Shown: one piece after another, positions 106 through 43,187 of the stretch
How the letters are laid out: the number at the start of each line of letters is the position of its first letter
How positions within the stretch are numbered: position 1 is the first letter of the stretch
Source: Chrysomallon squamiferum
Taxonomy: Eukaryota > Animalia > Mollusca
Reading direction: 5' to 3'
Assembly (NCBI GenBank): GCA_012295275.1
Contig: CM022676.1
Coordinates: forward strand, 2,666,001 to 2,730,000
Length of the DNA stretch: 64,000 bases
Notes under the pieces: model-generated
Database searches by the model: none
Told to the model about the DNA's origin: nothing
The model's input: only the letters and a program-made list of their open reading frames with translations
Translations under genes and position numbers: made by a program

Positions 106-3100
106 GCGAGTACCATAAAATCATATGAAATTAGACTGAAATAACCAACTTGCACATGATACAGAGTTTATTCCAACAGAAATAAACATTTGTCTTAAAA
201 TCTGTGCTTATTATTAATAACATAAATTTATTTGAAGAAGAAAGGAAATAAGATAAAACCGTTTCTTCAACAGCTGAACAATACTGGAAATTTTCACATT
301 GCAATAGCTATTATTCTTTCTATTGCAGAAATAATATTTTATAAACTGTTAAATTTAATAGATATTTGTGGTAAAAAATTAAAACAAATAATTATTTAAT
401 TAAATTATTTTCTTGTTTTTGTTTCAGTGTTGGAGGATAATGATTTGTATTTCAAATCTGATGACAAAAAGAAACTCAGATTGCCAGGTTTGTATTACAT
501 CATGTTTAAAAAGAGACAAAGAGGGAAAAAAAGTAATAATATTAATAATAAAATAATTTACAGATAACTGATCTCTTCAGAATATAAGTTTCAGTAATAT
601 GTTGCTGTTTTTTGTTGTTGTTTTTTGATGTTTTTTTAGTTTAAAAAAATTAAAGACAGATTTATTCTGGCAGCATTTAATAATATGGAAATGAAAATTA
701 TTTTCTTATTCTGTATACAATTTTTCAATCATTACAATTAATAGTTCATTACTTAATTAATTTACTTTTAACCACATTCATATTAAAACTGTGTTGTACC
801 AATTTTTCATTACATACAACTGCTGATAATGAACATGATACGTGTTCTTTTCATTGCTAAAAAAGAGTAAATTATAATATCTTTACCCATCCATTTATCC
901 ATCATCTGTGAATTCTGTCTGTTATCTTTTTGAGTCTAATTTTGCCATAGTCTATGTATTATTTTTGCGAAATGTTAATAATAATAATAATAAAGAATTG
1001 GCTTGTAAGAATTCTTAGTTTTTAGAAATGATAAATTCATAATACATTTACACAAACATACCAGTGTCTGGTGTTGCTAACATTTTCATATTTATTAAAA
1101 TGATATCTACTGTAATTTAATATGCTGTCATTGTTATAGCAGGAAATGATTCCAGACAAGTTGATCCTAAACCAAGCACAAGTTCTGGAGTGACAGCTGA
1201 GAATACTGAAAGTCAATATTCTGTTGTAAAGACAACAAAGACTGGTCAGTCTACAAGTAATCAGAGTAAAGAAGGTAAAAAAACATTAAAAACAAATAAT
1301 AGTAAAAAAACATGAAAGGCTGACTGGGACTTGGAGCATATCTTTAATGTTGAACTCTACACCTTTTCAAATGTACTTTATATAATAGTATCCAATGACA
1401 ATCTTATTGATGTAGCTCAATGCTATCATTTCAACAGATTTTAGTCATTGTTTAATAAACCTTGAAATTATATATGGATCCAAATTATTTAAAATTTGTA
1501 TCACATTTTTTATAAAAGCTCCACACAATTTACTATTAAATATTTATTAGGTCATAACAGAAATAATACTTGTCAAAAATTAAATTGTTTCTTGCTGATG
1601 TGCTGCTTATAATACAGTATTCACAGTCATCAAAAGTCATTTATAAGTGCAACTATTATGTGGCTTTGGTGAACATATTGTTGAAATGGTGGCTGGAAAA
1701 AAGTCACAAAATGTATGGGTTTGTATTGAATGTGGCATTATAGTATGCATGGGCTAATTGTTAAACTTATTGATTAAGCTAGATTAAAGAAAGTGGCTTC
1801 ATACTGGGTCTAGCTTGGGTTTAGCTTGCTGATTAGGATATATTTAAACTAAGGGCTTCCTATTGTAAATGATTTATAAAATATCCCAGGTTAAAATTAT
1901 TTCACTATATATTCTACAGCTTGCTCTAGTATCAGAAGTATGTTTAATATTGAAGTTACTCATAGCAATAAGAGTGGTAACAAAATCTGTTATGAGGGTT
2001 CATGTATACCAAACATGCAAATCGCAAAACAAAGTTGTGGTGGAAATGCATAAACAAATATCATTGTAATTGTCGAGGTTCAACAATAACAGACTTACAG
2101 AGAGAGCCTTGAGGACTGCAAAACTGTGGTAGAATTTCTTTGTGGTATTGGGTGGAACATCCACCTAAATCATCAACATTAAAATCAAAGAACAGGTGTT
2201 TCATCTATCTTTCATTTCTTAAATTTAATAAAAAGTTGTGACATTTTTCCTAGAATTGTTGAAACACCTGCAAATAATTGAGAAGAAAAGAACATTCTTA
2301 GAAAAGAGAACTGCAAGTAGAGGATATTTCAAAACTTGTCAAATGGTTTTCTTACCATGAATAAAAGAAGAAGAAAAAAAAAATATCTATGAGCCACTTC
2401 ATACAGAAATCTGATTTGGACAGATTCTGGTTTAGAATGTATTTTTTTGTTTGTTTGTTTTTAAACATAATTGTAAGTTGCACAAATGAAATGTGTTGAC
2501 TGTATCATTAAATGAAAATCTTCCTACCTTTGTTTAAGTTAATTGTCACTTATAAAATTCATATTATTGTTTGATCAGTTAATGTTATTTCTCCTATAAA
2601 TTACAGGTGAGAAAGGTAAAACAGAGTCTGCCAATGAGAAAAAAAGAAAGAGGAAAAGCAAGATATAAAAAGAAGGGAACAAGAAAAGAAAAAGAAAGAA
2701 AAAGGTTTGTAAATTGAATTAGCAGGCTTATGCGATGAATTAATTTACACCTAAATTTAACAAGTAATATGAAATATTTTTTCTAACTATGACATTTTTA
2801 CGGGGATCCTACTCCAAATTTGGACACTCTGGTAACATAGAAATTCATACACTATCTAAAATACAGGGATCGTATGCATTTTGGAAAGTTTGGGAAAATC
2901 GGGTTTTGTTACATTGGCTGTGGAAAAAGTTATGGAAAATTATGTATGAAATAATGTATGAAAAACTGCTTTGTTTCACCAATATTCCAAAGAGTGCTGG
3001 TACAATTTATTGTTCCCATATTTAGTAATCTTGTGAAAAAATGTATGTGTTTAAAACAAGCAGTATATAAAATCACCGTGCATAATCTGGATGATCTTAT

Positions 3101-4803: not shown

Positions 4804-6347
4804 ACCACTATTATTATTATTATTATTATTAACTACCACTATTTTTATTGGCTTTTATTTTCAAAATTTATTTTTAAATTTGCTTAAAGCTTAATATAAA
4901 TATTTTAATATTACTACTTATTTCAAGACATAGACCAGTTATTTAGAAACTAAATATTTTTACTAATAATAATTATAGAAATTTCTGATGACAGAAACAG
5001 AGTGGTTTACAAAGGGAACTAGTTGATTAAAGAATACTCATCTGGAATTTTTCAACACATTTAATAATATGAACGATCAGATTCCATTTGACTCATTTAC
5101 TTTTGTTTAGGAGATGTTTATGAAAATGTTGATGTAAAGGATGATGGTGCATATGCAAATGCAGCATTTGAAGGAGAAAGTGCAGCAGGTCAGAATATAC
5201 AGGTAATAAATTAACATTTATGCACAGCAGTTATTAACTAAATAAATACAGAACTTTTTTTTAAAACTAATATGAATAAAAGGATAGAATAAACACTTGA
5301 ACCCATCGTAGATAAAGGACAGCTTTGACCAGTATCATACCCAGTAAAAACAAACCTAAACAAGAACTTACTTGTAAAACTTTGAAGCTATCAATGCAAA
5401 GAAAAACCTTGCCATTAGTTCCTCATATGGGGAAGAAAACAAACAACAAAAAAACATTGTATCCAAACATTTTAATTTATTTAAAGTTTCATGAAACATT
5501 TTTTTTTTTTTATCCCAATTTGTTGTCTAATATAATACATTAAATTTTAAATTTTGTATATATAACTCTATTTGTGTGAAATATTCTGAAATTTGATTTT
5601 CTTTTAATGTGAGAGAACAAAAAAAGATTAAAAAAAGTTATAGAAAATCTGACCAAAACTCAACCTATTTCAATGTGGAGACAAAGTTACAGTGAAATCT
5701 CTTTATTTACACTGGCTCTATTTTTCTCATATACTTTTTCTCAATGAACTATATGCAAGAAGGCCTGAAATGTTTATTTTAAATTATGTAATAGAACTTT
5801 GCAGGTATCATATATTATTGCATCTTCAGCAAATAGGTATTTGGCAGAGTAACTATGGCATATAGCTGGGGTAGTAAAACAAGGTAAATTTGGGTGTATT
5901 TAAAAAATAAGTTAAATTTATGTGTATTTATTTAATTCTTTTTTTATTTGAATCTTTCTAAAGTTAACTATTTGTGTATTCCAAAAAGTTAAATTTGTGT
6001 TTCTTAAAATGCAGACAAGTATTTTGGAGGTAATAAAGGGGAGAATGATGTTATAAAGGTATTTGATTAAAAAATTTCTTCAGTGACAAAATATTTGTTG
6101 AATACTGGAAGGCCTAAAGGGTATGGTATTAAGTAGTTATACGTCTTTTTTATTTCAGGGAGCAAAGCATGGCCGAAATGAAGATGGGTTACTGTATGTT
6201 GGTATAGATTTCTCTAACGCACAACCAAATAAACCAGTTCACAAAACACAGGACAAAGTGGAGTACGTCTCCACTGACTGGAACAAGAAAGCAGAACTAC
6301 TTCCTGATGAAGATGACAAACAAACAGAGCCTAAGAGTGAAAACTAA
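46..6347 (+). CDS. Gene 1: 3' cytoplasmic-tail exons of a tyrosine-motif (ITIM-type) membrane receptor; the 5' part lies upstream of the window
   Basis: Phase-compatible exons 46-105, 428-487, 1140-1274, 2607-2704 (1 nt short), possibly 4393-4421, 5111-5202 and 6159-6347 (stop). They encode LEELYYMN.., LEDNDLYF.., SQYSVV, a K/E-rich segment, DVYENV..GAYANA and GLLYVGIDF..VEYVSTDW. The ectodomain is not visible, so IgSF membership is inferred from context. Confidence 0.75.
428..487 (+). CDS. Gene 1 60-nt Tyr-containing tail exon
   Basis: tttcag|tg ttg gag gat aat gat ttg tat ... ttg cca g|gtttgt; phase 1-1; LEDNDLYFKSDDKKKLRLP. Confidence 0.7.
1140..1274 (+). CDS. Gene 1 tail exon with ITIM-like SQYSVV
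   Basis: NAGNAG acceptor (tag/cag), donor g|gtaaaa, 135 nt and open: GNDSRQVDPKPSTSSGVTAENTESQYSVVKTTKTGQSTSNQSKE. Confidence 0.75.
2607..2704 (+). CDS. Gene 1 Lys/Glu-rich tail exon (98 nt; 1-nt shortfall in an A-run)
   Basis: ttacag|gtgag...aaag|gtttgt. As written it hits TAA; one extra A in the A7 run gives a 99-nt phase 1-1 exon GEKGKTESANEKKKKEEKQDIKRREQEKKKKEK. Confidence 0.55.
2864..3877. mobile_element. Probable non-autonomous DNA transposon (MITE-like) in a gene 1 intron
   Basis: Imperfect terminal inverted repeats CAGGGATCGTATGCA / GTGCACAAACCCTG, with similar subterminal tggctgtggaaa..atggaaa blocks at both ends; no coding capacity. Confidence 0.45.
4479..4568. repeat. Compound (GT)n(GA)n microsatellite
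   Basis: Seen directly. Confidence 0.95.
4738..4830. repeat. (TTA)n microsatellite
   Basis: Seen directly; source of the poly-Leu ORF 4636-4887. Confidence 0.95.
5111..5202 (+). CDS. Gene 1 tail exon with YENV and YANA (YxN) motifs
   Basis: tttag|ga gat gtt tat gaa aat gtt ... ata cag|gtaata; phase 1-0, matching the next exon. Confidence 0.8.
6159..6347 (+). CDS. Gene 1 terminal coding exon with a tandem ITIM-like pair
   Basis: tttcag|gga gca aag; GAKHGRNEDGLLYVGIDFSNAQPNKPVHKTQDKVEYVSTDWNKKAELLPDEDDKQTEPKSEN*. Confidence 0.85.
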   Translation, partial: GAKHGRNEDGLLYVGIDFSNAQPNKPVHKTQDKVEYVSTDWNKKAELLPDEDDKQTEPKSEN

Positions 6348-9300
6348 CTTTTTTGTTTACTTAATGAAGTTAAAATAGGAAACTATTTTTTTACTAACAA
6401 ACAATTTCATTCCAGAGATACATGTAAGTAAATGTGTATTTTACACAGTACAGTTGTTTATTTTGAACACATTTAAATGTATATGAATTTTTATATTTAT
6501 AAATAACAAAGTTGATTACTTTCTACTATACAGTGCATATTTTAGATATAAATATATTTTATTTTATTACTAAAATAAATACTACTTTGCATAATTATTA
6601 GAGTGAAACATAACACAAGTAAATTTGAGGAAATTGGATTTGAAATTTATTAACACTGATCTTTTAACCAAGGACATTTGTTAACATCTTGGTAATAGAA
6701 ACAGACATTCATCTTCATTACATATGAAGTTTGACTGAAAATAAGTTACTAATACACATATACAGAGAGTTCATTTAGTTAGAATTTTTACAAAAATGTG
6801 ATTCACTGATTCTGCAAATGTTTTCCAGATGTAACAATTTGTGATGTAGCTATTTTGTGCTAACCAGTAATGTATCCAGTTCCCAACAGATATCAAAAGT
6901 CTATCAAACATTTAGAAAACATAATTTTAGTGAAATCCAGTTATTTATGTTAAAATAATTTGCTATGTGTCAGAATTATTGTGCTTTGATTTTAATTTTA
7001 AATACAGAAACTGTAAAAAAGTTCTGGTTTGGCTGTTATATCCATTGTCTTTCATTGGCATGTCTTCTAATTATTTTCTATATACAGTTGGACCCTACTC
7101 TATCAACCATCCTAGAGTCAACATTTTTCTGTGCATGTTGAGATCACCAGCTGGTCCCATCTAAAACATGTATGACTGATATGACCCTTTCCTCTGTTGA
7201 GTTAAAATAATTCAGTCACTGTTGTGTTAGTGTTGATATATTCTTCTGGTCTCAGCTTAGGCTTTTAGCTAGACAACTAATTAGATGTGTGAGTATTTAT
7301 ATTCTGTTGAAATGAATTTATAAAAAGGTAAAGTATAGTCAGTGAGAATGTAACTGTTGCTGACTTGTTATTGTCAAAAGTTATGGTTGGTAATTAGTTT
7401 TCACTTGTCATATAAAGTATTTATCTAAAACACTGACCAAAGTATTAAATTGCCTCATCAAAATTGAAAACCCATGCTTAAGCTAGTAAATGACTTGATT
7501 TTTACATAGATATTTTTGATATAGAGCCTTGTTAAAATGAGCTGTAGTAACAAGGTCTCGGATCAGTTAGTTATTTGTTAATTACTGGAGAACCAATCTT
7601 GATATTTCTTTGGTGACATCAATGTTATTTAAGAGCTTTTAATATAAAAGTATATATTTTTTATTATTTTTTGTTTATTCTATGTTTCTTACATAGATAA
7701 AATTAAAATAGTACTTCTCAGTTTTCTATGGTAAGTGAAAATGTGTTGATAATTAAGTTGTTATTTTTGGATAAATGTGAATTAACAACATAAACAATCC
7801 CAACTACTCTTGTTCTAGTATTATTTTCTAAAATCAGTAAACACCAAAAGAAAAATATTTTAATTATTATTTATAACTTAGAGAAAAAAATGAGTTCCCT
7901 TTAAAACATTAATTAATCACAAAAATTCTGAAAAAACAACATTTAAATAAATTTATTATTTGTATGGTTTGCCATGCTTATTTTTTCTTCCTTTTCTTAT
8001 TTTTTTTTTTTTTTTTTAATGAATGACACATGAATAAGTGTTTAAAATGCTTATATTTTAAAAATGTACACTAATAAACAAAACAACAAAAAAAATGAAA
8101 ACATTAAAAGTCCAATATGTGGAATACATTTTCCAATCCTTTTGAAAGTAACTATTTTAGGATTATCTTCTTCATATATTTGAAATGCATCTTTATGGAT
8201 CAGTAGAAAATGGAACTGTTATAAGGGCATGCAAAATTAGTCCAGTAGGATTATCAAAAACTGTCTATTGGTCTAAATGAATACTTGATGAGCAGTAGTA
8301 ATTTGTATTTTAAGAAAATAATTGAGATATTGGAACAAAGAAGACAAAATCTTAAGTGCTGATTAAATTAATTATTAAGCTTTATTAAGTTAAACACTAA
8401 TGAGAACAACAGTATTGTATTTAACTAGAATGTAGCATTCCACTGATTATATGGCTGATCTGAAGAAATAAACAAAAAATATTAATTTGCACAGATGAAA
8501 ATACCACTGAAAATATTCATTACTATCTTTATCTCTGTGAAGAATTAATTTTATTTCTGAATATGAAATTTTTAATATATTTTAAAACATGATTTTCTAA
8601 CATAAAAATTAAAAATTTACATAATTTTCATAAAATTATATCTCAGACTATCTCCAGATGTGTTTTTCACCAATAGAAAGTTTAAATTGTCTTTTTTAAT
8701 ATTAATTAATGTTAGATTGTAACATTAAATTGTTTTTCATAACAGAGCAATATTTCTTCACTTTAAGAAATGAAAAGTTCAAAATAATAGTATGTGCTGT
8801 AAATTTAAAATATTTTTTATTCATGTTTACATTTGAGTGTTAAAACATAATTACAGTGTTTTTATATATATACATTTTCTGTTATTCTTTTAATTGCAAA
8901 TAAATATTTTTTCTATTGCTTTTGTATTTAACATTTATGTTTTGTTTTTAAATATATATATATACTTACAAAACAAAATGTTCAATCAGTGACACAACTG
9001 AACAATGTTAAACATACAAAGAATGTTATTGTAACTCGCCAAGTATTCTGAAGATTTGATTGTAGGTTTACTTTGGGCTGGAATGCTTTTGGACCAGTAC
9101 TCTCAAATTGTATCACTAATTTCCTAGAGTTATTTGAAGGCAGAGTGTTACCAAAAAATCACATATTTTACAACATACACAATTATTAGTCCATGTATCA
9201 AAAGCTCATGAGCCACATGTTTATAATATTTTTGATTTAGATTTACATTTGAGTGCTAAAACATTTAGTCATTACAAATACAAATTATGTTCTACTACTT

Positions 9301-9558
9301 TTGTATATGCATTGTTTGTCTTTCAAAACGGCCACAACTGGATTTATATAGTGAAAATCTAATTTCTGTGATTAATACATTTGTTTTTGTTTTAAATCTT
9401 TCTAATTTGTATACACTAACAGACTAATAATTTCTATATTGTAAAATAAAGCTCAGAACATAAATATTATTATAAGTAATAGTTAACATCTTTCTTTTAA
9501 CGTATGAATTAAAAACAAAATAATAATAATAAAAATAAACGAACAAAAGTTCACTTAC

Positions 9559-9613
9559 CTAGACAATATCTTACAATCAAGACGAAAAGAAGTAATTATG
9601 TCAACAATGCCAT
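9559..9613 (-). pseudogene. Orphan signal-peptide (leader) exon of the gene 2 family with an in-frame stop
   Basis: 55-nt ATG..G|gtaagt exon MALLT*LLLFVLIVRYCL, paralogous to 22881-22935; upstream 9620-9835 matches 22940-23170. Confidence 0.75.
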
Positions 9614-10225
9614 TGTTTATGTTGTGACAGCATCTTTCTTCCAAGTACACGAGCTGTTCTCTAGGTTAACTACCTGTGTCACGTTATTACAGCTGTCATT
9701 GTGTAAAAGTCTCTACTTTCTTCATATATTTAATTAACTTCATTTCTTACTTAGCGCCTCAGTTTATCTCTTTCTTCAGTTTAGATATAAAATAAATTAC
9801 CAAAAAGGCTTTTACAATAAACTGAATTAGTTGTACACGATATGGTCAACATATACAATTATTTTTGTTGTTACTAATTTATTTTATATCAAAGTTATAC
9901 GTTTGTTACAATTACTTTTTTGTTTTATTATTGGTATTCTCTGTTTATCCAATTTATAACAGCAGTTTCTTAGAAACGTATTTTTGAGTACATTTCTGAT
10001 ATGACATACGTTTTTCTTTTGACTAGTTTCTTTCTCGAAAAACAAAACGGAAATAATTTGAAGAAACATATTTATTATACTGTATATAACAGTTAAACAA
10101 TCATCTACTATTTATTGAATTTAGCTTTTATCAAAGAAAACATGAAGTCTCAGTGTTAGTAGATAGAATATATTAACTATTACACTAATTAAAAACATAC
10201 ACAATACAAAGTTACTTCAGTTATA

Positions 10226-10344
10226 TCATTTGTCACCTTTCTTCACATTTTCATACAGGTTCAGTTTGGTGTATTGTGGTTCTTCTCTGCTTTCTTGTAG
10301 ATCTTCATACATGTGGTCAGCTTTTACAATATTATTTTCAACAC
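10226..10344 (-). CDS. Gene 2 terminal exon, ITAM 2 plus YENV
   Basis: GVENNIVKADHMYEDLQESREEPQYTKLNLYENVKKGDK*. Confidence 0.85.
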
Positions 10345-10442
10345 CTGAAATAGTTTTAAAATTTTTAAATAAAATTTCTTCTCTTTATAAATGGCAGTGA
10401 TTTCAAGTTACAGTTTAAAAAAAAAAACTATATAGGTTTTAC

Positions 10443-10547
10443 CAGTTTGTCTCAGATTCTTGAGAATTCTTGAGTATTCAGTAGTATCTCTGTTTTGTTG
10501 AAGTCCTTCGTATGTCTGGTCTGTAACTGGACTCGGATGTTCCATAA
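10443..10547 (-). CDS. Gene 2 cytoplasmic exon, ITAM 1
   Basis: VMEHPSPVTDQTYEGLQQNRDTTEYSRILKNLRQT; 105 nt, phase 1-1. Confidence 0.85.
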
Positions 10548-10821
10548 CTGTAAAGATAACAAAAATCAGTAACTGATAAATACACAGCTATTACAAAAGC
10601 AACAGTCACTACTACAAAAACTGCTTTCGACTAGTGGTGCATAATATCATACATTAGTTCTAAAAATTAGATTTGCTATGTTATTTTTGTTTTTTAACCT
10701 TAATGTAAAAGATAAAAATACAAAGATAGCGATTATATTAAGGAAAATTAAGGGAAAACACACGTGTCAATTACTGTTACTATTTAGTTTTCAACGTTTT
10801 GTAAATTGTGTAATCAGTTAC

Positions 10822-10953
10822 CGGATTTGTTTGAAAATGGTCTGCATCTTCTAAGAAAAAAAACAATTATCACTATGAGAACAATTTCAGTCACAGAACC
10901 AAGAGCTCCTCATACAGCTGCACCAAGCAGAGAACTAGAACTACTATGTTCTT
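10822..10953 (-). CDS. Gene 2 transmembrane exon with an in-frame TGA
   Basis: EEHSSSSSLLGAAV*GALGSVTEIVLIVIIVFFLRRCRPFSNKS; 132 nt, phase 1-1. Confidence 0.8.
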
Positions 10954-11742
10954 CTGAAGTTGTAATACATAAATAACATTTATAATAACATTTGTTTCTT
11001 CTGAAAATTGAATAACGTAAAAACAAAAATTGTTATAAAACTGTAGTAATTAAACTCCATAATAACAGTTAATTCTTCAGCAGCTGTTATCATTACTTAA
11101 ACATGAATGATGTTATTATCTCTTTCTTTTGTGATCAATAATTAAAAATAAGCAATAATATAACTGTAAAATCGTAATTACAAATTATATATCAGCGTAA
11201 TGTTTGTTATTTTAAAACTGTTAAGTTTATTAATACAACAAATATTATCATTTTCTTCCTTTCAGTTAAGACAGTTTCTAATGTTAGTGAAAAGAAAGAA
11301 CAGATTTCAGGTAGGTGATTAGATTAGATTGAATATTCTACACTGATATATATATAATATTAATAAATTAATTAAATGGTTTGATGATCACTGTAAAATG
11401 CTTCCACTGAAATTCAACAAAATTCTATAAAATAAGAAAATAAATATACTTATGCACGTAGATATGCATACATACAAATGACCAATCAATCATACACACA
11501 AATAAAGACATGCACATACAGCTATATACACAGTAATACACAGAAAAATATACTCTGTTACTGAAATAAAACATTAAAAAGATGATAAATTCAATATAAG
11601 TAAATGTTAAAATTCATATAGTGAATTATATATCTCTCAACCACAAAAATACATATATTTATATTTTTAACTTGTGAAACTTATAATTATTTTTTCTTCT
11701 AGTGGTAATAATAAAAATGAATAGGATTGTCGTATTAATTAA

Positions 11743-11857
11743 TTTTAATATTTGTTTTATCTTTTAATTATTTACATTTGTGTATGTATCTATGTACATA
11801 CATACATGCATGCATACACAAATGTAAATAATTAAAAGATAAAACAAATATTAAAAT
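11743..11857. repeat. Near-perfect inverted repeat (about 44-bp arms) in the gene 2 FN3-TM intron
   Basis: ttttaatatttgttttatcttttaattatttacatttgtgtatg and its reverse complement (one indel) around a short loop. Confidence 0.85.
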
Positions 11858-11907
11858 ATTATATATATACTCAGAAAATGTGAACAAACTTAAATGAACA
11901 AAATGAA

Positions 11908-11940
<33 letters not shown>

Positions 11941-11956
11941 CATAATAATCATAATC

Positions 11957-11987
<31 letters not shown>

Positions 11988-12157
11988 TAAATATAAATAA
12001 AAATAATTTAAAAATATTAAATAAATAAAGTAAAAAGAAATAACAATACTTAGATCGACATTTAGATCAAAGTATTCTTTCAATTTAATTTATATGGATA
12101 TTTGCTTGGTGTAAAATATTTTAAAACTTTATAAAATAAAAGAAGATGCTAATTAAC

Positions 12158-12805
12158 CTTTTGTAATTGCTTGAATGGTGACATAATCACTTCTATTATC
12201 TGAAGTTCTCATGTCTTCAGCTGAAATTCTCACATCATAAACTGTTTTATCGTGGAGATTGGTGATCTTAAAAAATATTTTCTGTCCCTGTGTTGAGTCA
12301 TTAAACCATTTACTTGTCCAAGAAGTAATCCAGTTAGAGTCACTTTGTAATTTGTACTGCAGTATAAATCTTTGTTTGAAATTACCACCTGGGTAGTTAG
12401 GTAGCCAGGACAAGAACACTGTGTCTGATGTTGATTCTCTTTCTTGTTGGAACTCTTTAGGAGGAAAAGGTGGACCTGCTCCAGTTAGGTTCACAGAGAA
12501 CTCAGAGCATCCAACTTCATTACAGACAGACAGTTTGTATGTTCCAATGTCGTTTTGAGTAAAATTACTGATACTGAGATAAAACGTGTAACCAGAATTT
12601 GTTACTGTTTTACTGTGTATTTGTAATGTAACACTTTCCTGTACTACATCTGTGTTATTATAATGTGTTTGTTTATCAAAGTTATTCCAAGTAAATGTTG
12701 GGAAGTTTGGCTTGGAAAACACAGATTTGATTAGTCTGACAGGTCTTCCAGTCTCAGCTCCCAGGATACTGTTTGCCTTGGTCTCCATAGCAATCTTTGG
12801 TGTTG
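12158..12805 (-). CDS. Gene 2 membrane-proximal Ig + fibronectin type III exon
   Basis: 648 nt, phase 1-1; ..NDIGTYKLSVCNEVG..GPPFPP..VFLSWLPNYPGG..FILQYK..ITNLHDKTVYDVRISAED. Confidence 0.9.
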
Positions 12806-13418
12806 CTATAGTTTAATAATAAAACTAATTTGTAACAATTATGTACAGTTTAACTATTATAGTTAATAAAGAGACCAAAAATTATTTTTATTTTAGATCT
12901 GAATTTTCAAATTTAATAATTAATTTATGATTGTAAAATATTTAACTTGCAAAGTATACGAAAGAAGCAACTTATAACATGGAAAACATCAAGGCAGGCT
13001 TTGGTGATCTATACAGTGAACCCTTGATTTAACAGAGAATGAGTAGCGTGGAAAAAGAAACTCAGACATTTTGTAGTGAGGTGTTAAAAATAACACAAAT
13101 ATTGATATTGGTAATGTAGGATAACATACAGAAATAAATTTTCTTTAAAATAACAGATTTTAAAAAGCCTGACAGACAGCAGATTGAACTGGCTCAGCCA
13201 TTATCATATAATTCATTCCAAATCAGTGGAGATTGGAGATTATTTATACATTTCCCAGATTTCTCTCCAGAGTTTTCCTAAATCAAGTAAGAATAGGTTG
13301 GGTTTACTGACAAACACCAATAATTTGCGTGTTAAAAATTATTACTAAAAAACTTTAGTTATTCCATTGTTTATTTTACTTTTCTAATCAGAGAAATCAA
13401 ATTACAACTATAAAATCC

Positions 13419-13706
13419 CTTTTACATAAATATCAGCAGATTTGGTTTGACTCAGTTTTCCAGATCTATCTCTAATTCCATTATGTACACTACAAGTGTA
13501 CGTTCCTCCATCTTCACATATAACAGATTTAAACATCAGTCTGTACTGACTGTTTCCAACAACAACTCCACTAACATCCTCTATAAATACTCCATTCCAA
13601 TAATGTTTAAAACTTGTAAACGTCAAGTTGCCAGGACGACCATCAGCAAAACACGTAATATTTGCTGTTATGTTTTCTGTTGTATTCACTGAATCAAAAG
13701 TGATGT
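13419..13706 (-). CDS. Gene 2 Ig exon with a defective donor
   Basis: ITCFADGRP..HYWNG..EDGGTYTCSVHNG; ends aaa g|ggattt, with GG where GT is needed. Confidence 0.8.
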
Positions 13707-13797
13707 CTAAGAAAAATTGCTAAAATAATAAGTAAATATTGTTAATTTGTTTAAATAAACAGCTACAAGTTTGGAGACAGAACAAACAGATACTTAC

Positions 13798-14064
13798 AGC
13801 TGACAACAACTTCAGTGTCGCGTGACTTAACAAGGTAGACATATTCTTTTGTAGTGACGTTTGCTTCACATGTGTAATTACCATGATTTGTTCTGTTCAA
13901 GTTTGTTAAAATTAACTTTCCATTATTAATCAGCTCTTGTCGATCAAATGTCCACTTGAGTTCAGCTGGACGAGGATTGCTGTCTGATGTACAGGTCAAG
14001 GTCAGGTCATCACTTTCTTTAAGAAGTCCTGATTTTGAAAATGTGACTTTGATTCTGGGATAAT
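13798..14064 (-). CDS. Gene 2 Ig (I/C2-set) exon
   Basis: YYPRIKV..LTLTCTSDSNPRPAELKW..NHGNYTCEA; 267 nt, phase 1-1. Confidence 0.85.
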
Positions 14065-14352
14065 CTAAAATATGACCAAGTTGAAATAATAAAATTAATA
14101 TTAAACATCTAACAACTCTTTCTAAATGAATGTACTATATTCTTTCTTATAAAGAAACTGAATTTCTGTTTATTTCTTACAACTGTTTTATTCTGATAAT
14201 TATTTAAAAGCAACTGAAAAGATGTTGACATGATTTAGATTTCAATTTTCAACAGACTAATACTTTTTAATTCAGTGAGTACTTAGCAGTAACGTTTCCA
14301 AAATTAAAATCAAACAGATCATTAAAAATGTTTGAGGTAACAAATATCGTAC

Positions 14353-14640
14353 AGTAAATGTTTAGTTGTATCTTATTAGATTCATGTCTTTGTTGTTCGT
14401 TTCTGTCTGTGTATTCATTCCCAGCTGAACATTTGTAGCAGACTCCATTGTCTTCCTTTGTGGGTGTCAGTGACAAGTTAAATCCTGTGTGTTGTACATC
14501 AGATCCATTTCTAATCCAGTAAAACTGAGCTGCTGCATTTCCTTTACCACTGTCAGGTAAAGAACAAATCAAAGAGCCTCCTGTGTTTTCTAGCCATGGC
14601 TGTTTAGGATCTGATGAAAGTGTTGTTTTGTGTGGATGAT
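14353..14640 (-). CDS. Gene 2 Ig exon
   Basis: YHPHKTTL..LICSLPDSGKGNAAAQFYWIRNG..EDNGVCYKCSAGN; 288 nt, phase 1-1. Confidence 0.85.
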
Positions 14641-16342
14641 CTATTTAAAACATTTTCATTTTAATTCAGATAAAGATGTCTTGATTTTTGTTTTTCATAT
14701 AAATAAGCAGGAAAATATATACATTTTGTTGTATCTGCAATTTTGTTAAATTATTATTTTCTTCTGAATTGTGAATGGAATACCGACACAGAAATATATT
14801 TACTAATATAAAAAAGAAGTATTTGTTATATTTATTTCTAAGAATTAATTGTTTTTAAACATTTATTTCACAAATTCAAGGTCAGTGTTACAAATATTTA
14901 TGTAAATATGTAAATATAAAAAAAAAATGTTGCTGATTGCAAATTCTTAATCAGTTGTGCCATATTTTTCAACATGACTCACTGACTGCAGACAAAAGAA
15001 GTTGTAAACATTTTTAATAAAAAAATAAACCCTGATATTGTCTAAATTACTGAGGTGGTAAAGTAAATACCTTGGTTATAAAAGTTCCTACTCATAACAA
15101 ACAAAACCGCGAAGTAACGCTATACTTGTAAGTAGTGTGGTTAAGCCAACTGGGTGATTTTGCAAAGGAATTGCCAAAAGGTGAAATTTTATTACAATCC
15201 AATAATTACCAGTCACTGTTTGGGTTAGATCTGCATTGCTAATTAGAATTAATCCTTGATTACCACACTAATACTAGTATTATAGATAAACAGGCGGAAA
15301 TAGTGGAAATAAATCAATTAACATATTTCAAAAACCTCACAAGTTTGATAAATGTGAATAAAACTTACAGGAACAAAGAGATAACAGTAGTGTTGTGGTT
15401 ACTTGCACACAATTAGACTACCACGTGAGATGAAAGGTTCACGTTTCTTTGAAGGCTTAAGAAATAATGGTCCCATGTTTCTTGTAATTACTATATGCAG
15501 GTAAATGATCAATATTATTACGAGTGTGTATTGATACCTAAATGAATTCATTCATTTAGTTTTGCACGTTTTGCATTGTCTTATTTAATTTATTATAATG
15601 GCAGAGCAACCTAAAAATGACAAATATGAAACCTTCTATGCAGTGTAAAGTGAAATTAATAAGAATAGTTTTCATTAAATCTACTTATAACAGTGACCAT
15701 TACTGGCTATTGTAAGAAACCAACATTTTGACAATCAGAAAACAAGTAATGACTGGCGAATCAAAAATTGTTTGACGATACACAAAAACTTTCGTACACT
15801 CACCAAACGTTCATATATACTAACAGTTTTAAAATGATCACAGAATTTAAATTTCTTGCTGCTACTACCATGACAGAAGTTTGCTTCTGAGAGAAATATG
15901 GAAAGGAAAAAAAAAGGTCCTGTCCTCAGTGATAGACTATTTATTAGTTGACAACTGATAGGCATTTAACTGAAACATTTGTAATAAGAAAATATTCCAA
16001 CTTCATAAACCGGCACGCTGACTAAAACAGCATATCTCATTGGTTCCAAGTGAATACAGTTTTGACAGTCTACTCTCTCTCACTGTAGATAGGTAGATAG
16101 ATGGATCTATAAAAAAAAAAGCAAAAATAAATTGACTAAAACTGTGTTGTGTTACCACGGTGTGATCATTGTGTTAGATGTAAATGGCCATTTATTAACA
16201 ATACAAGTCAAATAAATTTGAAAATAAAAATAAAATAAATGAATTAACGTTGAGAACTAGATGTCATTACAAAAAAAAAACACACAAATAAACTGATACT
16301 CAATATAAACATTTAAAAAATATCTAACATTAAAAGTCTTAC

Positions 16343-16654
16343 ACCACACATCAAGTATTCCAGTGTTGGATGTTACAAGAGTTTGTCCAGGAATCCCTGC
16401 GTGGCAGTAAACACTGTGTCCATCATCTGACTCAGTCAGTGTTAGCGACAGAGAACTCTTTCTTACAGTCAGGTCACCTGATGTGATATTTATGTTGGTG
16501 ATTCCTGTGTTTATCTGTTCATTATTCTTGTACCAGTAAACAGAGGAGACTGGGTTGCTAGGTGACGTGACACATGTCAGAGAGTCAAAACCTTCACTGA
16601 TTTTTTTATTATTCTGTGAACTGATGTTTAATAGTGTCACCTATTTTACTTGTA
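16343..16654 (-). CDS. Gene 2 Ig (C2-like) exon with an in-frame TAG
   Basis: VQVK*VTLL..LTCVTSPSNPVSSVYWYK..DDGHSVYCHA; 312 nt, phase 1-1. Confidence 0.8.
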
Positions 16655-16912: not shown

Positions 16913-17662
16913 CTGGAAAGTTAGAGGTACAAATAAACTTCTCATAAACGTCATTGTTAAAAGACTGATGAATCAGTTGAGTGGAGACATTAACTTTTCC
17001 TTGTACAGTTAAATAATTCATAGTCAGCCTGGCAGCTGTTTTAACTTGTATAGTTGTACAACCGTTACTGACTTTTGTAGCAACTGGAGTCAAGTTCTTA
17101 AATAGAAAGATAGCAGAAATATAATTATTATTATTAGTTTATTCCTTTAACTAATATAATATTAACAATAGATATGTTTTTCTAATAAATGCTCATTGGG
17201 TCTGTTCAAAGGTGAAAATCATTTATTAAAGTTTATAATTGTACTAACTGAACAATGTTTTAGTTATTTTTGTATCAGGAGAGAATCATCACTTTTGTCA
17301 TGTAAACCTATCATTACAATATAAGGGGAAAAAAAGAGGTATATAAATAATTAGTTTTTTAAATGTTGGTGTTTTTAATGAAGGGATTAGTTGGAATGTT
17401 TCCTGGCTTTTGGTAAAGTTAAAAAAAAAAAAAAAAACACAAACACACACCAAATAAAGTAATTATAATAATGCACCAATAACTTTTCTTTATATTTTAC
17501 AAATTTAGTTATGAACACAAACGTACCACAGAAGATTCACCAAAAAAATTCCAGGAGATGTTCACAACTGGGTAAGCACAGCCAGTCGTTACACTGACAG
17601 TAAAATCTTTCTCAGAATCAATGTATGTCTCCACTGGACACGCATACGTGAAATCAACAAAG
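16913..17662 (-). CDS. Gene 2 second Ig-like domain split over two exons (17662-17527, 17096-16913)
   Basis: ACPVETY..GCAYPVVNISW.. joined in phase 0 to NLTPVATKVSNGCTT..KFICTSNFP; canonical splice sites. Confidence 0.65.
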
Positions 17663-18000
17663 CTAAAACGTAATAATAATAACAAATAAAAGAACAATAA
17701 ACAGACTTTATGCTACCAGCATATTCGACTATTCTATAACTGTGTTAGTAATGTTGAGGAAAAAAACAAAACACCTAGGTTTAGTTTAAAGAATAGTGAC
17801 GAGGTTTCTCTTCAGGACAAGAAAAAAAAAAGTATCAACAGAGCTACTTTATATATTTCATCTTTACTATTTTTATTATAATTTGAAAAGCCGTCAAACC
17901 GTTATAAATTCAAATCTTCACCTGCTAATTATCAGTCTTTTGATTGTTTTTGATTGACAAACTTATAAAATTACAAAGGTGCAGATTTTTTCAAGAACAA

Positions 18001-18030
18001 AAATATATATATATATATATACACACACAA

Positions 18031-18101
<71 letters not shown>

Positions 18102-21148: not shown

Positions 21149-21466
21149 TTGCAAAAGGAGCTCTAAGTGTTAACCTCACAGAATATACAAAGTTTTGATA
21201 AGTTTCAGTAACATTCCAGGTTCCTGCGTGTTTTGTTTCATTAAAAGTAAAAATCTCAAGAGTTATGACATGTGTAGACTGTCTTGTTACATTGTAATTA
21301 AATCCAGAACCACACGGTCCACCTGATGCAAAACATGCTCCTTGTGCTGATCCATTCAGTATGAAAATAAGAGATCCTGTTATGTCTTCTTCACTGTTTG
21401 TGTAGATCAAAACAAGAAACTGACCAAGCACTGGCATTTTCTTGTCTGTGGTAAGAATTCTATTTC
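21149..21466 (-). CDS. Gene 2 N-terminal atypical V-like Ig domain exon
   Basis: 318 nt, phase 1-1; GNRILTTDKKMPVLGQFLVLIYT...GACFASGGPC...ITLEIFTFNETKHAGTWNV...VRLTLRAPFA. Confidence 0.7.
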
Positions 21467-21543: not shown

Positions 21544-22880
21544 CACCCCAAAAACAACTACAATAAGAATAAATGACGTCGTAATAATTCTCAACCACAA
21601 TAGTAATATAAATGTCTTAAGTATTTAAAAAATAAATAACAAAAATAAAAATGGAAAATAAAATAGAAAATAATAATAATAAAAACAATTGAATTAAACA
21701 CAAAAATAATATAAAAAACTAATATATTACTAAAATACTTTTCATAGTCAGTGAAAACACAGTTAGCTGGAATGACATGTTTGTAGGGTATCATTCAGTT
21801 TGTTACTCGACTCGTTTGTCACACACCTTTTAACAACATGTGTTATACAATAATGGACTCATCTTCCTAGTTGTTACAGAGTCAGCTTAGGGAACAATTC
21901 AGAAACAAGAATACAAATATGTATCCACATCCATTTGTTATGAATTCAGTCACATTTCAGGAATAATATGAACTAACACATCACATTCTATATATGTATG
22001 CAGTAATACGTGTTACATCACAGTGTTATATATAAGTATGTTCAGCCGGTAACTGTTCCATTAAGCTGACTGTGTAACAAATGGGAGACAAATGACATAT
22101 TCTGGAATATGACCTATTTTCTAACTGCCTTGTTTTAGTCTTTGTAAAGTTCAGAATTTGTATAAATATGAAATATCTGTTGCTGATAATTGAAACTCAC
22201 TAGTGTTTCACATGACTGTAACTGTTTTATTGGATTTTTACGTGTTTTCATCTTTACAATATGTTTGATGTCGTATTTTCGTGAATCATGTAGCATGAAT
22301 CATAAATCATCGAGTAAATGATTTCTTTCTTTACAAATAACAATATTTGTTCCACTTAACTCGAACACGATACTGTATAACATGTTGACAGTCTTGTTTC
22401 ATACGTGTCTCTTGTCTAAACAACTAGTGTTGTTTTCAAAAATAAAAATCTGGCTTTAGATACTGTCTTAATTTTCGAATAAATCAATAAATAAATAAAT
22501 GAAAATCATTAATCGACATTAATCGTCTTATTAGTTGTATTGTTGGCGTTTTCATTAAAAAGTAAACGAAACAAAGAAATATGAAACCTTTCTGTGTAAT
22601 TAATCTCACAATGGAATATAATTTTATTTTTAACACACTTGGAAATGTTTAATTAAAATTCTATTTTCAGCATAGAATTCGTTCACTTGTGATATACAAA
22701 CTGTGCAGTTTAAATAATATACAGTGATAAATCTGTATCTACGTTTTAACACTAAACCACCTCCAATCAGGACACAGCTTAAATAAATGTGTTACTTTTT
22801 CAGTACATGGATCATATTTTCAGTAATATTAAAAATATTTATTTTAATTTATCAAATAAGAAATAAAAATAAAAGCTTAC

Positions 22881-22935
22881 CTAGACAGTAACTAACAAGG
22901 ATGACAGAAACAAGTAAATATCGAAGCAGCGCCAT
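22881..22935 (-). CDS. Gene 2 signal-peptide exon
   Basis: MALLRYLLVSVILVSYCL(G), 55 nt, donor gtaagc. Confidence 0.8.
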
Positions 22936-23002
22936 TGTGAATGTTGTGTTTAAACTTGTTTCTTCAGGGTTCACGAGTTGTACTTTATTTAGGTTTTCTT
23001 AC

Positions 23003-23170
23003 TGTGTCACGTTATTACTACAGCGCTGTCACTGTGTAAAAGTGTCTTCTTTTTTACATATATTTAATTCACTTCGTTTCTTACTTAGCGCCTCAGTTCA
23101 TCTATTTCTTTAATTTAGATAACAAAAATAAATAACCAAATGTCTTTTACAACAAACTGAATTAGTTATA
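23003..23170 (-). promoter_or_regulatory. Putative proximal promoter of gene 2, conserved with paralogous copies
   Basis: TGTGTCACGTTATTAC is identical at 9675-9690, 23003-23018 and 25041-25056; it lies about 60-70 nt upstream of the leader ATG in the first two copies. Confidence 0.5.
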
Positions 23171-23494
23171 CCGACGTAGCTTACTCTGGGTTGTTTCGAT
23201 TTATTTGAAATATTTTAAACATATTAGTAAACAAACTATTTTTTGTCTTTTTATATCTTTTTCTGTCATTTTACATCACGTTTTAAATTGTTACACTTAT
23301 AATTTTAACTGCAGTGGGAGGAACACGAAACAAATTCTGAGCAGTCAGTGCGATATCGGTTTTCACTGAAATCACAGAGATAATCAAGAAACGACAACTC
23401 GTCTAAAAAGAAGAAAAAAGAAAATTCTGGCCTTCTTACTAATGGAAAAAGAGAAACATCTAGTCTATGGCAGAAAAATTTGGAGTTAAAACGT

Positions 23495-26095: not shown

Positions 26096-26254
26096 TCAAC
26101 TCGGTGTGTTATCAGACACCTTCAGCTTTTCATACGCAGGTGCATCACGTGATTGTAAACACTCGTACTGAGTTGTAGGTATTTGACCATGTTCTATAAA
26201 TTTATTAATACTTTCATAAACACATTTTGATAAACTATTTTTCCGTAATATTTT
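26096..26254 (-). CDS. Gene 3 terminal exon with an ITAM
   Basis: KILRKNSLSKCVYESINKFIEHGQIPTTQYECLQSRDAPAYEKLKVSDNTPS*. An internal acceptor before EHGQ is also possible. Confidence 0.75.
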   Translation of the reverse strand, partial: KILRKNSLSKCVYESINKFIEHGQIPTTQYECLQSRDAPAYEKLKVSDNTPS

Positions 26255-27405
26255 CTAGAAAATATTAATTAAAGAAATCGTTACCGGAATTTGAAAAAAA
26301 TATTAGGCGCTTATTTTTAATTCATTTAATTTACTGCAGCTTCTTTGAGTTTATAACATATTGTATATAAAACAAACCTAATAATGTTCTTTCAGTCTTT
26401 GTCGAAATTACTTATTAATTGTTCAAGCTCTTCATGAAGTGAATAAAATATGTGACTGTTTGTAACTGTCTGCCTCTTTGTGTGTATGGGTTTATGCATA
26501 AGGTTTGTTAATGTGTATGAAAAATTGGCATCTGATTTTGAATTTCCGCAATCATCTTGATTAATACTTCAAGATCTACTTCAGTTTGAATCGTTTTATG
26601 TATTAAAGAGACAGCTTCTTTGCAAAGGAAATTACTCTAGTAAAACTAGGATCTAAAAAAGATACTCAAAACACTGGATTTCTATTTTACCTGCACAAAC
26701 AGCTGTTTCACCATTGATACGTCTTGATATCTGTGAAACATAATAAGAAAAATATACTGGTATCTCATTCAAGTATATTTGGTTTTACTTGCATTGCTGT
26801 AACGAGACAATCACACACTTTGCAGAGGTATTTATGTTAATAGAGCAATGTAAATATTTTATTAGAGGTTAATATATTTTCAATCCTGATACAATTTTGC
26901 AGCAAAATTTACTTTAAACATAAATAATGATATGATATAGTTATGCACTTTGGGCATACTAGTGTCTATTTCGAACAAGGTCTGCAGGTACTTTAGTAAA
27001 TAGATACTGAATATCTCTTATCACAGTAGTAATCAGAAATATTTCAACACACTACTCACGTATGTGTTTCATTTTCATTTTTGCTGTCTGAACCTGTAAC
27101 ATATATGTACAGTTGTATTTTACAAGCTAAATAATAATTCTTACGTTGAAATAATTGGATTGGATTTTCTTTTTTAAACAACCAATGAAAAAAGAAAGAA
27201 ACAATAATAAAAATAAATAAATGCACGCACATGCACACACACACACATACGTATATATAGTTAACGATCAGAAAAAATATTAAAAATAAAAAGTAAGAAA
27301 GAAAGATAATTTTAAAATAAATTATTAAAAACTACAATAAAATAAATACGAAATATTCAAAACAGTAAAACAATATCTAATGAGTGAGTCTAAAATTTAA
27401 CTGAC

Positions 27406-27534
27406 TACGGATGGTGTAACCTCTTCTCCTCAAGATGAACAGAATAATTATTGCAGGAAAGCAGAGCAGAAGTATTCCTACTACCAGACCAATTCCAATT
27501 CCAGTTCCAAGTGTTGCCATGGACGAAGATTCTT
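27406..27534 (-). CDS. Gene 3 transmembrane exon
   Basis: ESSSMATLGTGIGIGLVVGILLLCFPAIIILFILRRRGYTIR; donor a|gtcagt. Confidence 0.8.
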
Positions 27535-27798
27535 CTACAGTGATTATAATAACAAGTTTAACTACATAAATCAATTATCCGCATTTACGTTTAATTTTTT
27601 AATTAAAACTTTCTTCTAAAGATCTTTCCTTAAATAATGCCAATAGTTTCGACAATGTCAAATTCACCAGAACCTGTATACAAGTAATGTAAAAAAGTAA
27701 ACAAAAACACACAGAGAAGAAATAAATAAATAAATGAATAAATATTTTGCTGAAATTGTAAATGAAGAATCGAAAACTATATATATTATTTTACTTAC

Positions 27799-28086
27799 TA
27801 AAAGTAGTACAAACAGTCAAACAGTAACGGCTGTCATTTTTATTTGCAGACCAGTAAATTTTAAAGTGGTAGGAAGAATTGGACTTGAGATGAGAAATGT
27901 GTAAAGAAAAAGTCTTGTCGTGTCTCTTATTGTCTGACACTTGCAGACTGATAGACTGGTCTTCAGTAGACAAGCGTTGTTCGACAGTGAATCTAGTGAA
28001 CTTGTTTGTGTTGTATTTCCACTTGAGATCTGCTGAAGTTTCTAACACATTTGTGCAGTAACACCATTCAGGAGCTGATTCAAGAA
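27799..28086 (-). CDS. Gene 3 FN3 exon
   Basis: LESAPEWCYCTNVLETSADLKW..ISHLKSNSSYHFKIY; 288 nt, phase 1-1. Confidence 0.8.
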
Positions 28087-28282
28087 CTAAAACGTGAAAA
28101 AAGATTTATGTTGTGTTTTAATTTCATCTGCAATTTATATATATATACATTTTAGTAAAACCTGCATATAAAAATTGATACTGGCTAATTCTGATAGGGA
28201 TGGAAGCAACAAAAACAAAGAAATGAAAAATCATTTGTACTTGCTAACAAAGGTCACATGAAAAATGTGGAAATAAAGTTAC

Positions 28283-28543
28283 CTGTAACAATGACACTGG
28301 CAGATCCTGACACTGAAGTGTTAAAAGAAGTTTTTGAAATTGCTGAACACGTGTACTCTCCTTGGTCTGACTGTTGAAATGAGCAGATTTGAAACAGAGA
28401 ACCATCAGTGAGATGTTTTGTACCAGTTCGCCATTCAAATACAACACTGTCTGGATTACTGTCAGCTGTACAGTGTAGTATCACAAGTTTTCCCAGTTCA
28501 ACTCTGATGTGACTCTCTGATAAAATTCTTACTCTGGGTGCAT
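28283..28543 (-). CDS. Gene 3 Ig exon
   Basis: APRVRIL..VILHCTADSNPDSVVFEW..SDQGEYTCSA; 261 nt, phase 1-1. Confidence 0.85.
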
Positions 28544-32045: not shown

Positions 32046-34294
<2,249 letters not shown>

Positions 34295-39005: not shown

Positions 39006-39048
<43 letters not shown>

Positions 39049-42630: not shown

Positions 42631-42685
<55 letters not shown>

Positions 42686-42897
42686 ACAGACACACAGACA
42701 CGAATATATATTGCAACATCAGTCAGATAACATCGCATGTACCTTGCATAGATAAATTCCGATAAATATACTCAGCTACTATTACATCACAAACATCGTG
42801 AACTATAAATATATGACACCCAACACTGCACTTATCCAAACTAAAAATCACTTATAAACCTGTTTATAAAATACTTGTATTTAGAGCTAAACAAAAA

Positions 42898-43187
42898 CAG
42901 TTGAAGTCAATGTTAAACTTGTTAATAAAATGACAGTGATTACTGTGGACATGGTTAAACAATCTAAGAACAACGTAAATGAAGAAATGTAACACTAAGA
43001 CATAAAAGATAAAAAAAGAAATCAGTTCAAAAACCTATTTATAAAATACTTCATCGTCTCTTCGACATGTCTGTGAAAGACAAGTGTTATAGTTATTAAC
43101 ACATGAACAAAAACAAATAAAGTAGAACTTACCAGTTGAAGTCAATGTTGAACTTGTTAATAAAATAACAGTGATTACTGTGGACAT
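42898..43187 (-). other. Extra family-5 leader exons (43187-43133 intact; 42952-42898 donor lost; degenerate copy about 42329-42281)
   Basis: Repeated ATGTCCACAGTAATCACTG..ACTTCAACTG 55-mer. Confidence 0.8.

Follow-up and report, generated by a model that had tools for sequence, protein, structure and literature searches.

Two ITAM exons end an immunoglobulin-superfamily receptor gene of the snail Chrysomallon squamiferum, behind a stop codon that probably leaves them untranslated

The 64,000-nt stretch of Chrysomallon squamiferum DNA analyzed here (assembly GCA_012295275.1, contig CM022676.1, positions 2,666,001 to 2,730,000 of the forward strand; hereafter the window, with positions counted from its first letter) carries on its minus strand a receptor gene of the immunoglobulin superfamily (IgSF), which we call gene 2. 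The last two coding exons of this gene each encode one immunoreceptor tyrosine-based activation motif, or ITAM. Our reading, to which we give a probability of roughly 0.6, is that these two exons end an IgSF receptor gene and specify a tail that would likely dock a Syk-type tandem-SH2 kinase once phosphorylated, but that a stop codon in the transmembrane (TM) exon likely leaves the tail of this particular copy untranslated. The elements on which this reading turns are the following.

10822 to 10953, minus strand: TM exon, with a Ser-rich stalk, a hydrophobic 19-mer and an RRCR stop-transfer sequence; donor G/gtaact, phase 1
10910 to 10912, minus strand: in-frame TGA in the TM exon, in the context L-L-G-A-A-V-stop-G-A-L-G-S-V
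10548 to 10821, minus strand: intron that separates the TM exon from ITAM exon 1, 274 nt, GT..AG
10443 to 10547, minus strand: ITAM exon 1, 105 nt, phase 1-1, acceptor ...tttacag/TT at 10547, donor G/gtaaaa after 10443
10465 to 10521, minus strand: motif of ITAM exon 1, DQTYEGL...YSRI (YEGL-x8-YSRI)
10345 to 10442, minus strand: intron between ITAM exons 1 and 2, 98 nt, GT..AG
10226 to 10344, minus strand: ITAM exon 2, the last coding exon, starting in phase 1, acceptor ...tatttcag/GT at 10344
10262 to 10318, minus strand: motif of ITAM exon 2, DHMYEDL...YTKL (YEDL-x8-YTKL)
10244 to 10255, minus strand: YENV (a YxN site), after N-L behind the second ITAM
10226 to 10228, minus strand: stop codon TGA of ITAM exon 2

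A preliminary description of this DNA had placed two ITAM peptides, one complete motif per exon, at 10226 to 10547. We recovered both peptides, their coordinates and the exon borders, and the interval coincides exactly with the outer borders of the two exons. The peptides lie in the minus-strand stop-to-stop frames 10408 to 10587 and 10226 to 10384, and the D-x-x-YxxL-x8-YxxL/I string occupies residues 12 to 27 of the in-frame translation in each exon, so that the exons share both phase and motif register. Both cassettes have a YxxL/I pair with a spacer of 8 residues (6 to 8 are allowed, 6 to 9 by some authors) and an Asp three positions before the first Tyr; the consensus, D/E/N-x-x-YxxL/I-x7-YxxL/I, and the spacer range are those given in PMC4536121 and in the Hydractinia Alr preprint. 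Over 19 aa the cores of the two exons share 37% identity (E 0.012 within the window), and their nucleotide alignment has the same letter in 68 of 137 columns. The exon duplication put forward earlier fits these data because the phases are alike (1-1) and the motif stands in the same register, and we infer that the cassette was duplicated in tandem. The YENV site reported behind the second ITAM is likewise present, and the corresponding site reads YQNL, YKNV or YENL in relatives and transcribed copies. Thus, the structural reading of one ITAM per exon, a duplicated cassette and a YxN site is supported.

Upstream of the tail, gene 2 runs from several Ig exons through a combined Ig and FN3 exon to the TM exon and then to cassettes 1 and 2, all in phase 1. 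The ectodomain exons are as follows.

About 16913 to 17083, and possibly 21149 to 21430 with an ATG, minus strand: tentative further 5' exons
16343 to 16640 (frame 16257 to 16640), minus strand: Ig exon, C2-set (Pfam C2-set_2, 34.3 bits), 5' border tentative
14353 to 14640 (frame 14267 to 14644), minus strand: Ig exon (Pfam Ig_2, 27.7 bits)
13798 to 14064 (frame 13763 to 14134), minus strand: Ig exon (Pfam Ig_3, 47.3 bits)
13419 to 13706 (frame 13408 to 13719), minus strand: Ig exon (Pfam Ig_3, 31.7 bits), aligned by tblastn to the Gigantopelta aegis protein P0003
12158 to 12805 (frame 12153 to 12812), minus strand: Ig and FN3 exon (Pfam I-set, 24.2 bits; fn3, 24.0 bits, slightly below the cut-off of 25)

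The ITAM exons are the last two coding exons of a gastropod IgSF receptor gene. Because the hydrophobic 19-mer (mean Kyte-Doolittle 2.52, with one Glu inside) is followed by RRCR, the ITAM tail is assigned to the cytoplasmic side. Exon order, phases, the 19-mer with RRCR and an intact homologue, P0004, together speak for ITAMs that stand C-terminal to the TM segment, an arrangement that the TGA in the TM exon interrupts in the gene 2 copy. The acidic residue in the predicted TM helix is encoded by GAA at 10884 to 10886 (minus strand). One RNA contig, which stems from a near-identical copy, has Asp at this place, but the G. aegis homologues have no acidic residue there, and we therefore give it little weight.

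The closest relatives of the gene are found in the vent snail G. aegis. A search with the 219-aa Ig and FN3 exon gave four protein matches at E ≤ 0.001, and all four are G. aegis IgSF proteins, 59 to 60% identical over 98 to 99% of the length (E 1e-74 to 3e-78). The longest, P0003, is colinear with four exons at 14656 to 12159 in the window (tblastn). The automatic names of the G. aegis homologues are those of adhesion molecules (L1-like, DSCAM, SYG-2-like). Among them, P0004 (XP_041379249, "L1-like") has an uninterrupted TM segment and two near-identical units of the form T-YEGL-x8-YS[QK]L-T-V-YQNL, and its residues 377 to 410 align to window positions 10321 to 10220 with 44% identity (E 2e-4). 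Compared with XP_041379249, gene 2 shows a homologous Ig/FN3 ectodomain and a TM segment with two x8 ITAM cassettes and YxN, and it lacks an uninterrupted frame with canonical splice sites.

When 1.84 billion representatives were searched by HMMER with the tail of P0004, three matches came back: P0005, P0006 and P0007. P0005, a G. aegis model, has a single unit like those of P0004; P0007 is a 42-aa open reading frame on an ENA contig with a cluster mate, P0008, each with one cassette of the form YEGL-x8-YSEF-N-I-YKNV; P0006 is a repeat protein and was judged spurious. Conservation of the Tyr spacing in paralogues had been proposed as a check on the motifs, and the 8-residue spacing is present in all five cassettes of the relatives (P0004 supplies two, and P0005, P0007 and P0008 supply one apiece), which with the two of the window makes seven of seven cassettes with the spacing x2-[LIF]-x8. 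A third Tyr follows two residues behind the ITAM as YxN[LV] in six of these seven, the exception being cassette 1 of the window. The best scores of a Protein Atlas search with the tail were 0.85 and 0.84, below the level at which that search counts a match as more than a lead. No description of a gastropod ITAM receptor was found among the papers listed in literature searches for gastropods and for G. aegis, searches with subscription journals mostly outside their scope.

To follow transcription, we drew on 11 public runs listed for positions 10150 to 12900, two of them RNA, and compared the contigs of X7 and X9 (RNA) and of X2 and X5 (DNA or unknown) over 10100 to 11980. The joint from 10547 to 10822, which skips the 274 nt with GT..AG on the minus strand (CT..AC on the plus strand), occurs in two X7 contigs (shorter side 22) and one X9 contig (shorter side 53), and in none of the contigs of X2 or X5. 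Contig 25 of X9 covers 10237 to 10345 and continues for 32 letters, the first 16 of which (the shared base counted) equal exon 1 from 10443; beyond these it has a variant ending, I-E-M-Y-E-N-L-R-Q-T, and loose ends at 10465 show this exon 1 ending in each of the four runs. This contig is a spliced junction between ITAM exons 1 and 2 (10443/10344) at the predicted borders, derived from a near-identical copy. RNA contigs thus back both junctions, with indirect evidence at the second; such a check had been suggested for the predicted exons. In addition, contig 17 of X7 (10153 to 10343) comprises the 3' untranslated region (3'UTR) and ITAM exon 2 and stops at the exon border. Because RNA depth in X7 and X9 is zero over 10982 to 11800 while the DNA runs continue, the RNA signal is not general carry-over of DNA; RNA cover is missing over 10982 to 11980 and that of all four runs over 11801 to 11980, gaps that do not demonstrate absence, and the RNA-only gap at 10982 to 11800 is a hint only. 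Low-depth X7 contigs span both small introns and represent unspliced RNA or a little DNA. We conclude that the receptor family is transcribed and spliced as predicted, and that the RNA contigs prove the exon design, not translation of the gene 2 copy.

The same contigs point to further copies. In X2 the summed contig depth over the three exons exceeds that of the introns 8- to 27-fold, and in X5 by more, a ratio that hints at many near-identical exons elsewhere and is not a copy number. In transcripts that stem from near-identical copies, the TM exon is 6 nt longer, beginning at 10959, right after FN3-exon ends (RNA loose ends), and at least three different transcribed copies share the TM exon, each with a different FN3-exon end (loose ends at 10959 and 10945). 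The transcribed copies keep a YxN site behind cassette 1 (YENL).

The gene 2 copy itself appears to carry several lesions. At the TGA (10910 to 10912), the three G. aegis homologues that reach this position have Gly, in an alignment that is gap-free from the end of FN3. DNA contigs of two studies show the TGA at flanking-intron depth (record 5 of X2, which has 0 differences, and record 12 of X5), and the X5 allele has one extra base in a T-run of the TM exon. RNA contigs 24, 30 and 31, which have differences from the window at other positions, likewise span the site, as do high-depth DNA contigs with a variant at 10879; contig breaks at 10913 to 10916 suggest hidden variation there. The second lesion lies in the Ig exon at 13419 to 13706, whose phase-1 donor at 13417 to 13418 reads GG, not GT (...AAA G/GG), although a phase-1 join of this exon is required by the ...V-Y-I-x-A-T-P-K of the homologues. 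Third, AA stands in place of AG before 10959, and the next AG follows 6 nt on, in frame. Finally, cassette 1 has lost the YxN tyrosine. Because the TGA lies upstream in the TM exon and an Ig exon lacks a GT donor, the ITAMs of the gene 2 copy are probably not translated within a membrane receptor.

Several ways around these lesions were considered and rejected. Selenocysteine at the TGA finds no selenocysteine insertion sequence (SECIS) and no Rfam family near threshold in 8500 to 11000. Adenosine-to-inosine editing of UGA to UGG would appear as a T>C row at 10910, and none is present in the RNA runs (weak evidence). An alternative acceptor at 10909 that skips the TGA is contradicted by RNA contigs, which reach 10916 and cover 10888 to 10959, and a 65-nt intron (GTATGA...cttag) inside the TM exon by RNA contigs that are contiguous across it. 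For the Ig exon at 13419 to 13706, the sole nearby GT is a phase-0 donor, TAT/GTAAAA, which would break the frame of the next exon. A pattern scan of metagenome contigs for the TGA neighborhood gave 0 matches.

A number of observations weigh against a decayed receptor copy with ITAMs that act in its relatives. The GG donor and the AA acceptor are read from the assembly only. No other letter was reported at 10910 to 10912 in any of the four runs; rare variants are lost from contigs, and the absence of a row does not amount to proof. The stop may be common to transcribed near-identical copies, which would fit a subfamily-wide change better than a single decayed copy. The RNA contigs differ from the window by 2 to 9% and thus come from alleles or paralogues, and the numbers of synonymous and nonsynonymous differences between copies are too small for a test. 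The tail family is also rare among predicted proteins (three matches in 1.84 billion, one of them spurious). A word-based protein search with P0004 tail residues 330 to 418 returned the query alone, and one with the 40-aa frame over ITAM exon 2 found no match among longer proteins.

If gene 2 were an intact working receptor, its TGA and GG would be a rare allele or mistakes of the assembly or consensus, or else read-through of the UGA would occur, and the ITAMs would be translated on a membrane protein. We regard this as unlikely, though it deserves some weight: the ITAM exons are open, with all four Tyr and all L/I positions kept and canonical splice sites, and X7 contig 17 covers ITAM exon 2 and the 3'UTR of gene 2, which stands at flanking-intron depth in the DNA runs. 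The ITAM exons of the different copies differ at 11 positions, none of them at a Tyr or L/I position and six of them synonymous; the synonymous changes make up five of six in exon 1 and one of five in exon 2, so that the changes in exon 1 are mostly silent and the differences as a whole speak mildly for continued constraint. Against an intact gene stand three independent lesions in one locus, the TGA in intron-depth DNA contigs of two studies with no alternative letter, the further 1-nt insertion in the TM exon of the X5 allele, and the lack of a SECIS-like element in 8500 to 11000.

The stop could instead be a working feature of a subfamily that expanded recently and whose products are secreted Ig-FN3 proteins, acting as soluble binders or decoys and terminating 16 codons past FN3; the TM and ITAM exons would then be remnants within the 3'UTR. 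That RNA contigs 24, 30 and 31 and the high-depth DNA contigs have no other letter at 10910 to 10912, and that at least three transcribed copies share the TM exon with differing FN3-exon ends, would be expected here. However, a missing row does not prove identity in contigs that drop rare variants, the breaks at 10913 to 10916 suggest that variation is hidden at the site, and the ITAM tyrosines are intact across copies, which is unexpected in an old 3'UTR; we consider this explanation decidedly unlikely. A bolder form, which we rate as improbable and rank lower again, is that the expanded subfamily shares a UGA just before the TM segment, so that the product would be a secreted Ig-FN3 binder by default and rare read-through of UGA would give a membrane form with two ITAMs, the cassettes being independent of the vertebrate ones. 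If true, a single codon would act as a switch between a decoy and an activating receptor.

Every YxxL/I is formally also a YxxPhi motif, and the tyrosines could therefore serve an adhesion or scavenger receptor mainly as AP-2-type signals for endocytosis or sorting, in keeping with the adhesion-molecule names of the homologues. Strict pairs, a fixed 8-residue spacer, an acidic residue at -3 and both tyrosines in seven of seven cassettes are needed by a tandem-SH2 ligand and not by a sorting signal, and an oyster IgSF receptor with an ITAM binds Syk. We find a mainly sorting role very doubtful.

The window is AT-rich (24 to 37% GC per 2 kb) with many microsatellites, and we asked how often the motif arises by chance in 100 dinucleotide-preserving shuffles read in six frames. 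The strict motif D-x-x-Y-x-x-[LI]-x8-Y-x-x-[LI] was observed four times against 0.72 expected per window (shuffle maximum 3), and two of the four matches lie in low-complexity DNA (11819 to 11872 and 17995 to 18051). Because 0.72 are expected per window, a single strict match is not rare. Chance does not yield two matches 200 nt apart on one strand, in the same register and phase, behind a TM exon, alignable with each other, and with a spacing that recurs in a G. aegis protein. Thus, although a loose form of the motif is common in the window (79 matches vs 19.6 ± 3.9 in shuffles, the excess mainly in Tyr/Ile-rich simple repeats), the idea that the ITAM strings are chance matches in AT-rich noncoding DNA is rejected as negligible in view of the splice sites, equal phases, RNA junctions and conservation in the protein of another species.

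Returning to the reading of an ITAM receptor family with a damaged copy in gene 2, a signaling role of the tail is plausible, and the recruitment of Syk or Shark is proposed by analogy with other systems, chiefly the oyster pair CgIgR and CgSyk. On the model of CgIgR, CgSyk and ERK, members of the family would act as self-signaling activating receptors: a ligand bound by the Ig/FN3 ectodomain would cluster the receptor, a Src-family kinase would phosphorylate the paired ITAM tyrosines, and a Syk-family kinase would then dock through its two SH2 domains. The YxN site, once phosphorylated, could recruit a Grb2-type adaptor, pYxN being the preference of Grb2-type SH2 domains.

ITAM-bearing IgSF receptors are already known from a mollusc, the oyster, and from a cnidarian, Hydractinia (the Alr proteins). 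As described in PMC6994640 and the review PMC11999971, the Crassostrea gigas receptor CgIgR (CgIgIT2) is a "BCR-like" IgSF protein that combines five Ig domains with a TM segment and a single classical ITAM; PMC6994640 further reports that it dimerizes, coprecipitates with CgSyk and promotes ERK phosphorylation. In architecture, which alone is compared here, both are mollusc single-pass receptors with several Ig domains, a TM segment and the ITAM on the ligand-binding chain; compared with the five Ig domains and one ITAM described for CgIgR, the snail family has two ITAM cassettes, each followed by a YxN, and an FN3 domain besides.

The Alr proteins, by the account in bioRxiv 10.1101/2022.03.04.482883 and PMC9546547, are clustered, rapidly duplicating single-pass IgSF proteins with an Fn3-like fold, ITAM or ITIM (immunoreceptor tyrosine-based inhibitory motif) tails and many pseudogene-like "putative" members. 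The snail genes resemble them, by that description, in being clustered IgSF genes with an Fn3-type fold, ITAM tails and damaged members. The Alr proteins, however, belong to a cnidarian and have unusual V-set/I-set domains by the same description, and nothing in the snail cluster points to allorecognition.

Drosophila Draper and the CED-1/MEGF10 engulfment receptors offer a further comparison: an ITAM on their own chain recruits the Syk-family kinase Shark for phagocytosis. These receptors and the snail receptor both have the ITAM on the receptor chain, but the engulfment receptors have an EGF-repeat ectodomain, one ITAM and other spacing.

The vertebrate ITAM subunits (CD3 zeta, FcR gamma, DAP12 and CD79a/b) share the consensus with the snail tail and have, as gene 2 does, an acidic TM residue, and the tandem arrangement resembles that of CD3 zeta. 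Unlike in these subunits, the snail spacer is 8 rather than 7 and the ITAMs sit on a large Ig-FN3 chain rather than on a small adaptor. Moreover, vertebrate ITAMs are split by an intron, as stated in PMC4536121, whereas each snail ITAM lies whole within one phase-1 exon, so that the classical vertebrate gene structure is absent. A whole-exon ITAM would be a shuffle-ready cassette, and because it is not split it argues for an origin of the snail cassettes independent of, and convergent with, the vertebrate ITAMs.

Outside vertebrates, ITAM-Syk signaling is functionally documented in few cases (Draper and CgIgR), the Hydractinia Alr proteins being known by sequence evidence alone. Two whole-exon ITAM cassettes in a gastropod family would be a further, independent case in which activating immune receptors were built by exon shuffling. 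In this relative of vent snails that bear symbionts, the receptors are candidates for a role in managing microbes. The locus is also cautionary, in that a perfect motif may sit behind a stop codon.

A second member of the family, gene 3, neighbors gene 2 on the same strand.

26096 to 29167, minus strand: gene 3, with Ig exons, an FN3 exon (27791 to 28105), a TM exon and one ITAM exon
27421 to 27534, minus strand: gene 3 TM exon, phase 1-1
26096 to 26193, minus strand: gene 3 single ITAM exon, with YECL-x7-YEKL at 26123 to 26167 and a TGA directly before the GT donor
1179 to 1250, minus strand: possible decayed relic of an ITAM cassette, resembling exon 1 (52% over 25 aa, E 0.08), first Tyr lost; a weak match

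The ITAM exon of gene 3 is 52% identical to ITAM exon 2 of gene 2 over 21 aa, with a spacer of 7. The reading frame changes within an Ig exon of the gene, near 29006 to 29009, and gene 3 is probably either a pseudogene or a variant with one ITAM. Gene 2, with its TGA, GG donor, AA acceptor and lost YxN, and gene 3 may be decaying members of a birth-and-death cluster. Turnover of this kind, seen here in damaged neighbors and in the numerous near-identical exons of the DNA runs, is typical of immune receptors that evolve fast. Near the possible relic, an NKYENV string stands at 1079 to 1096 (minus strand) in a frame other than that of the relic.

A 300-nt repeat, probably a dispersed element, occurs downstream of gene 2 (9554 to 9840) and, at 78% identity, downstream of the tentative exon at 21 kb (22876 to 23174). 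The plus-strand open frames 6102 to 6347 and 1121 to 1315 contain ITIM-like strings in hydrophilic context, L-L-Y-V-G-I and S-Q-Y-S-V-V, respectively. If these frames are exons, an inhibitory-type tail may adjoin the activating-type genes.

Beside the ITAM genes, the window holds a second, different IgSF cluster, formed by duplicated V-set-like genes. A segmental duplication of about 8 to 9 kb with 84 to 96% identity covers 37206 to 45942 and 54607 to 61194, and each duplicate contains a two-exon gene with a V-set-like domain (39410 to 39892 and 56934 to 57416) and a second Ig-like domain (38256 to 38927 and 56134 to 56622). Fragments of the second domain lie at 45969 to 46232, 51380 to 51883, 53165 to 53389 and 63302 to 63712, and a diverged plus-strand copy at 46616 to 46993. 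A TM-like exon at 33156 to 33374 (minus strand), in which RRGR comes after a hydrophobic segment, may be part of the V-set gene at 38 to 40 kb.

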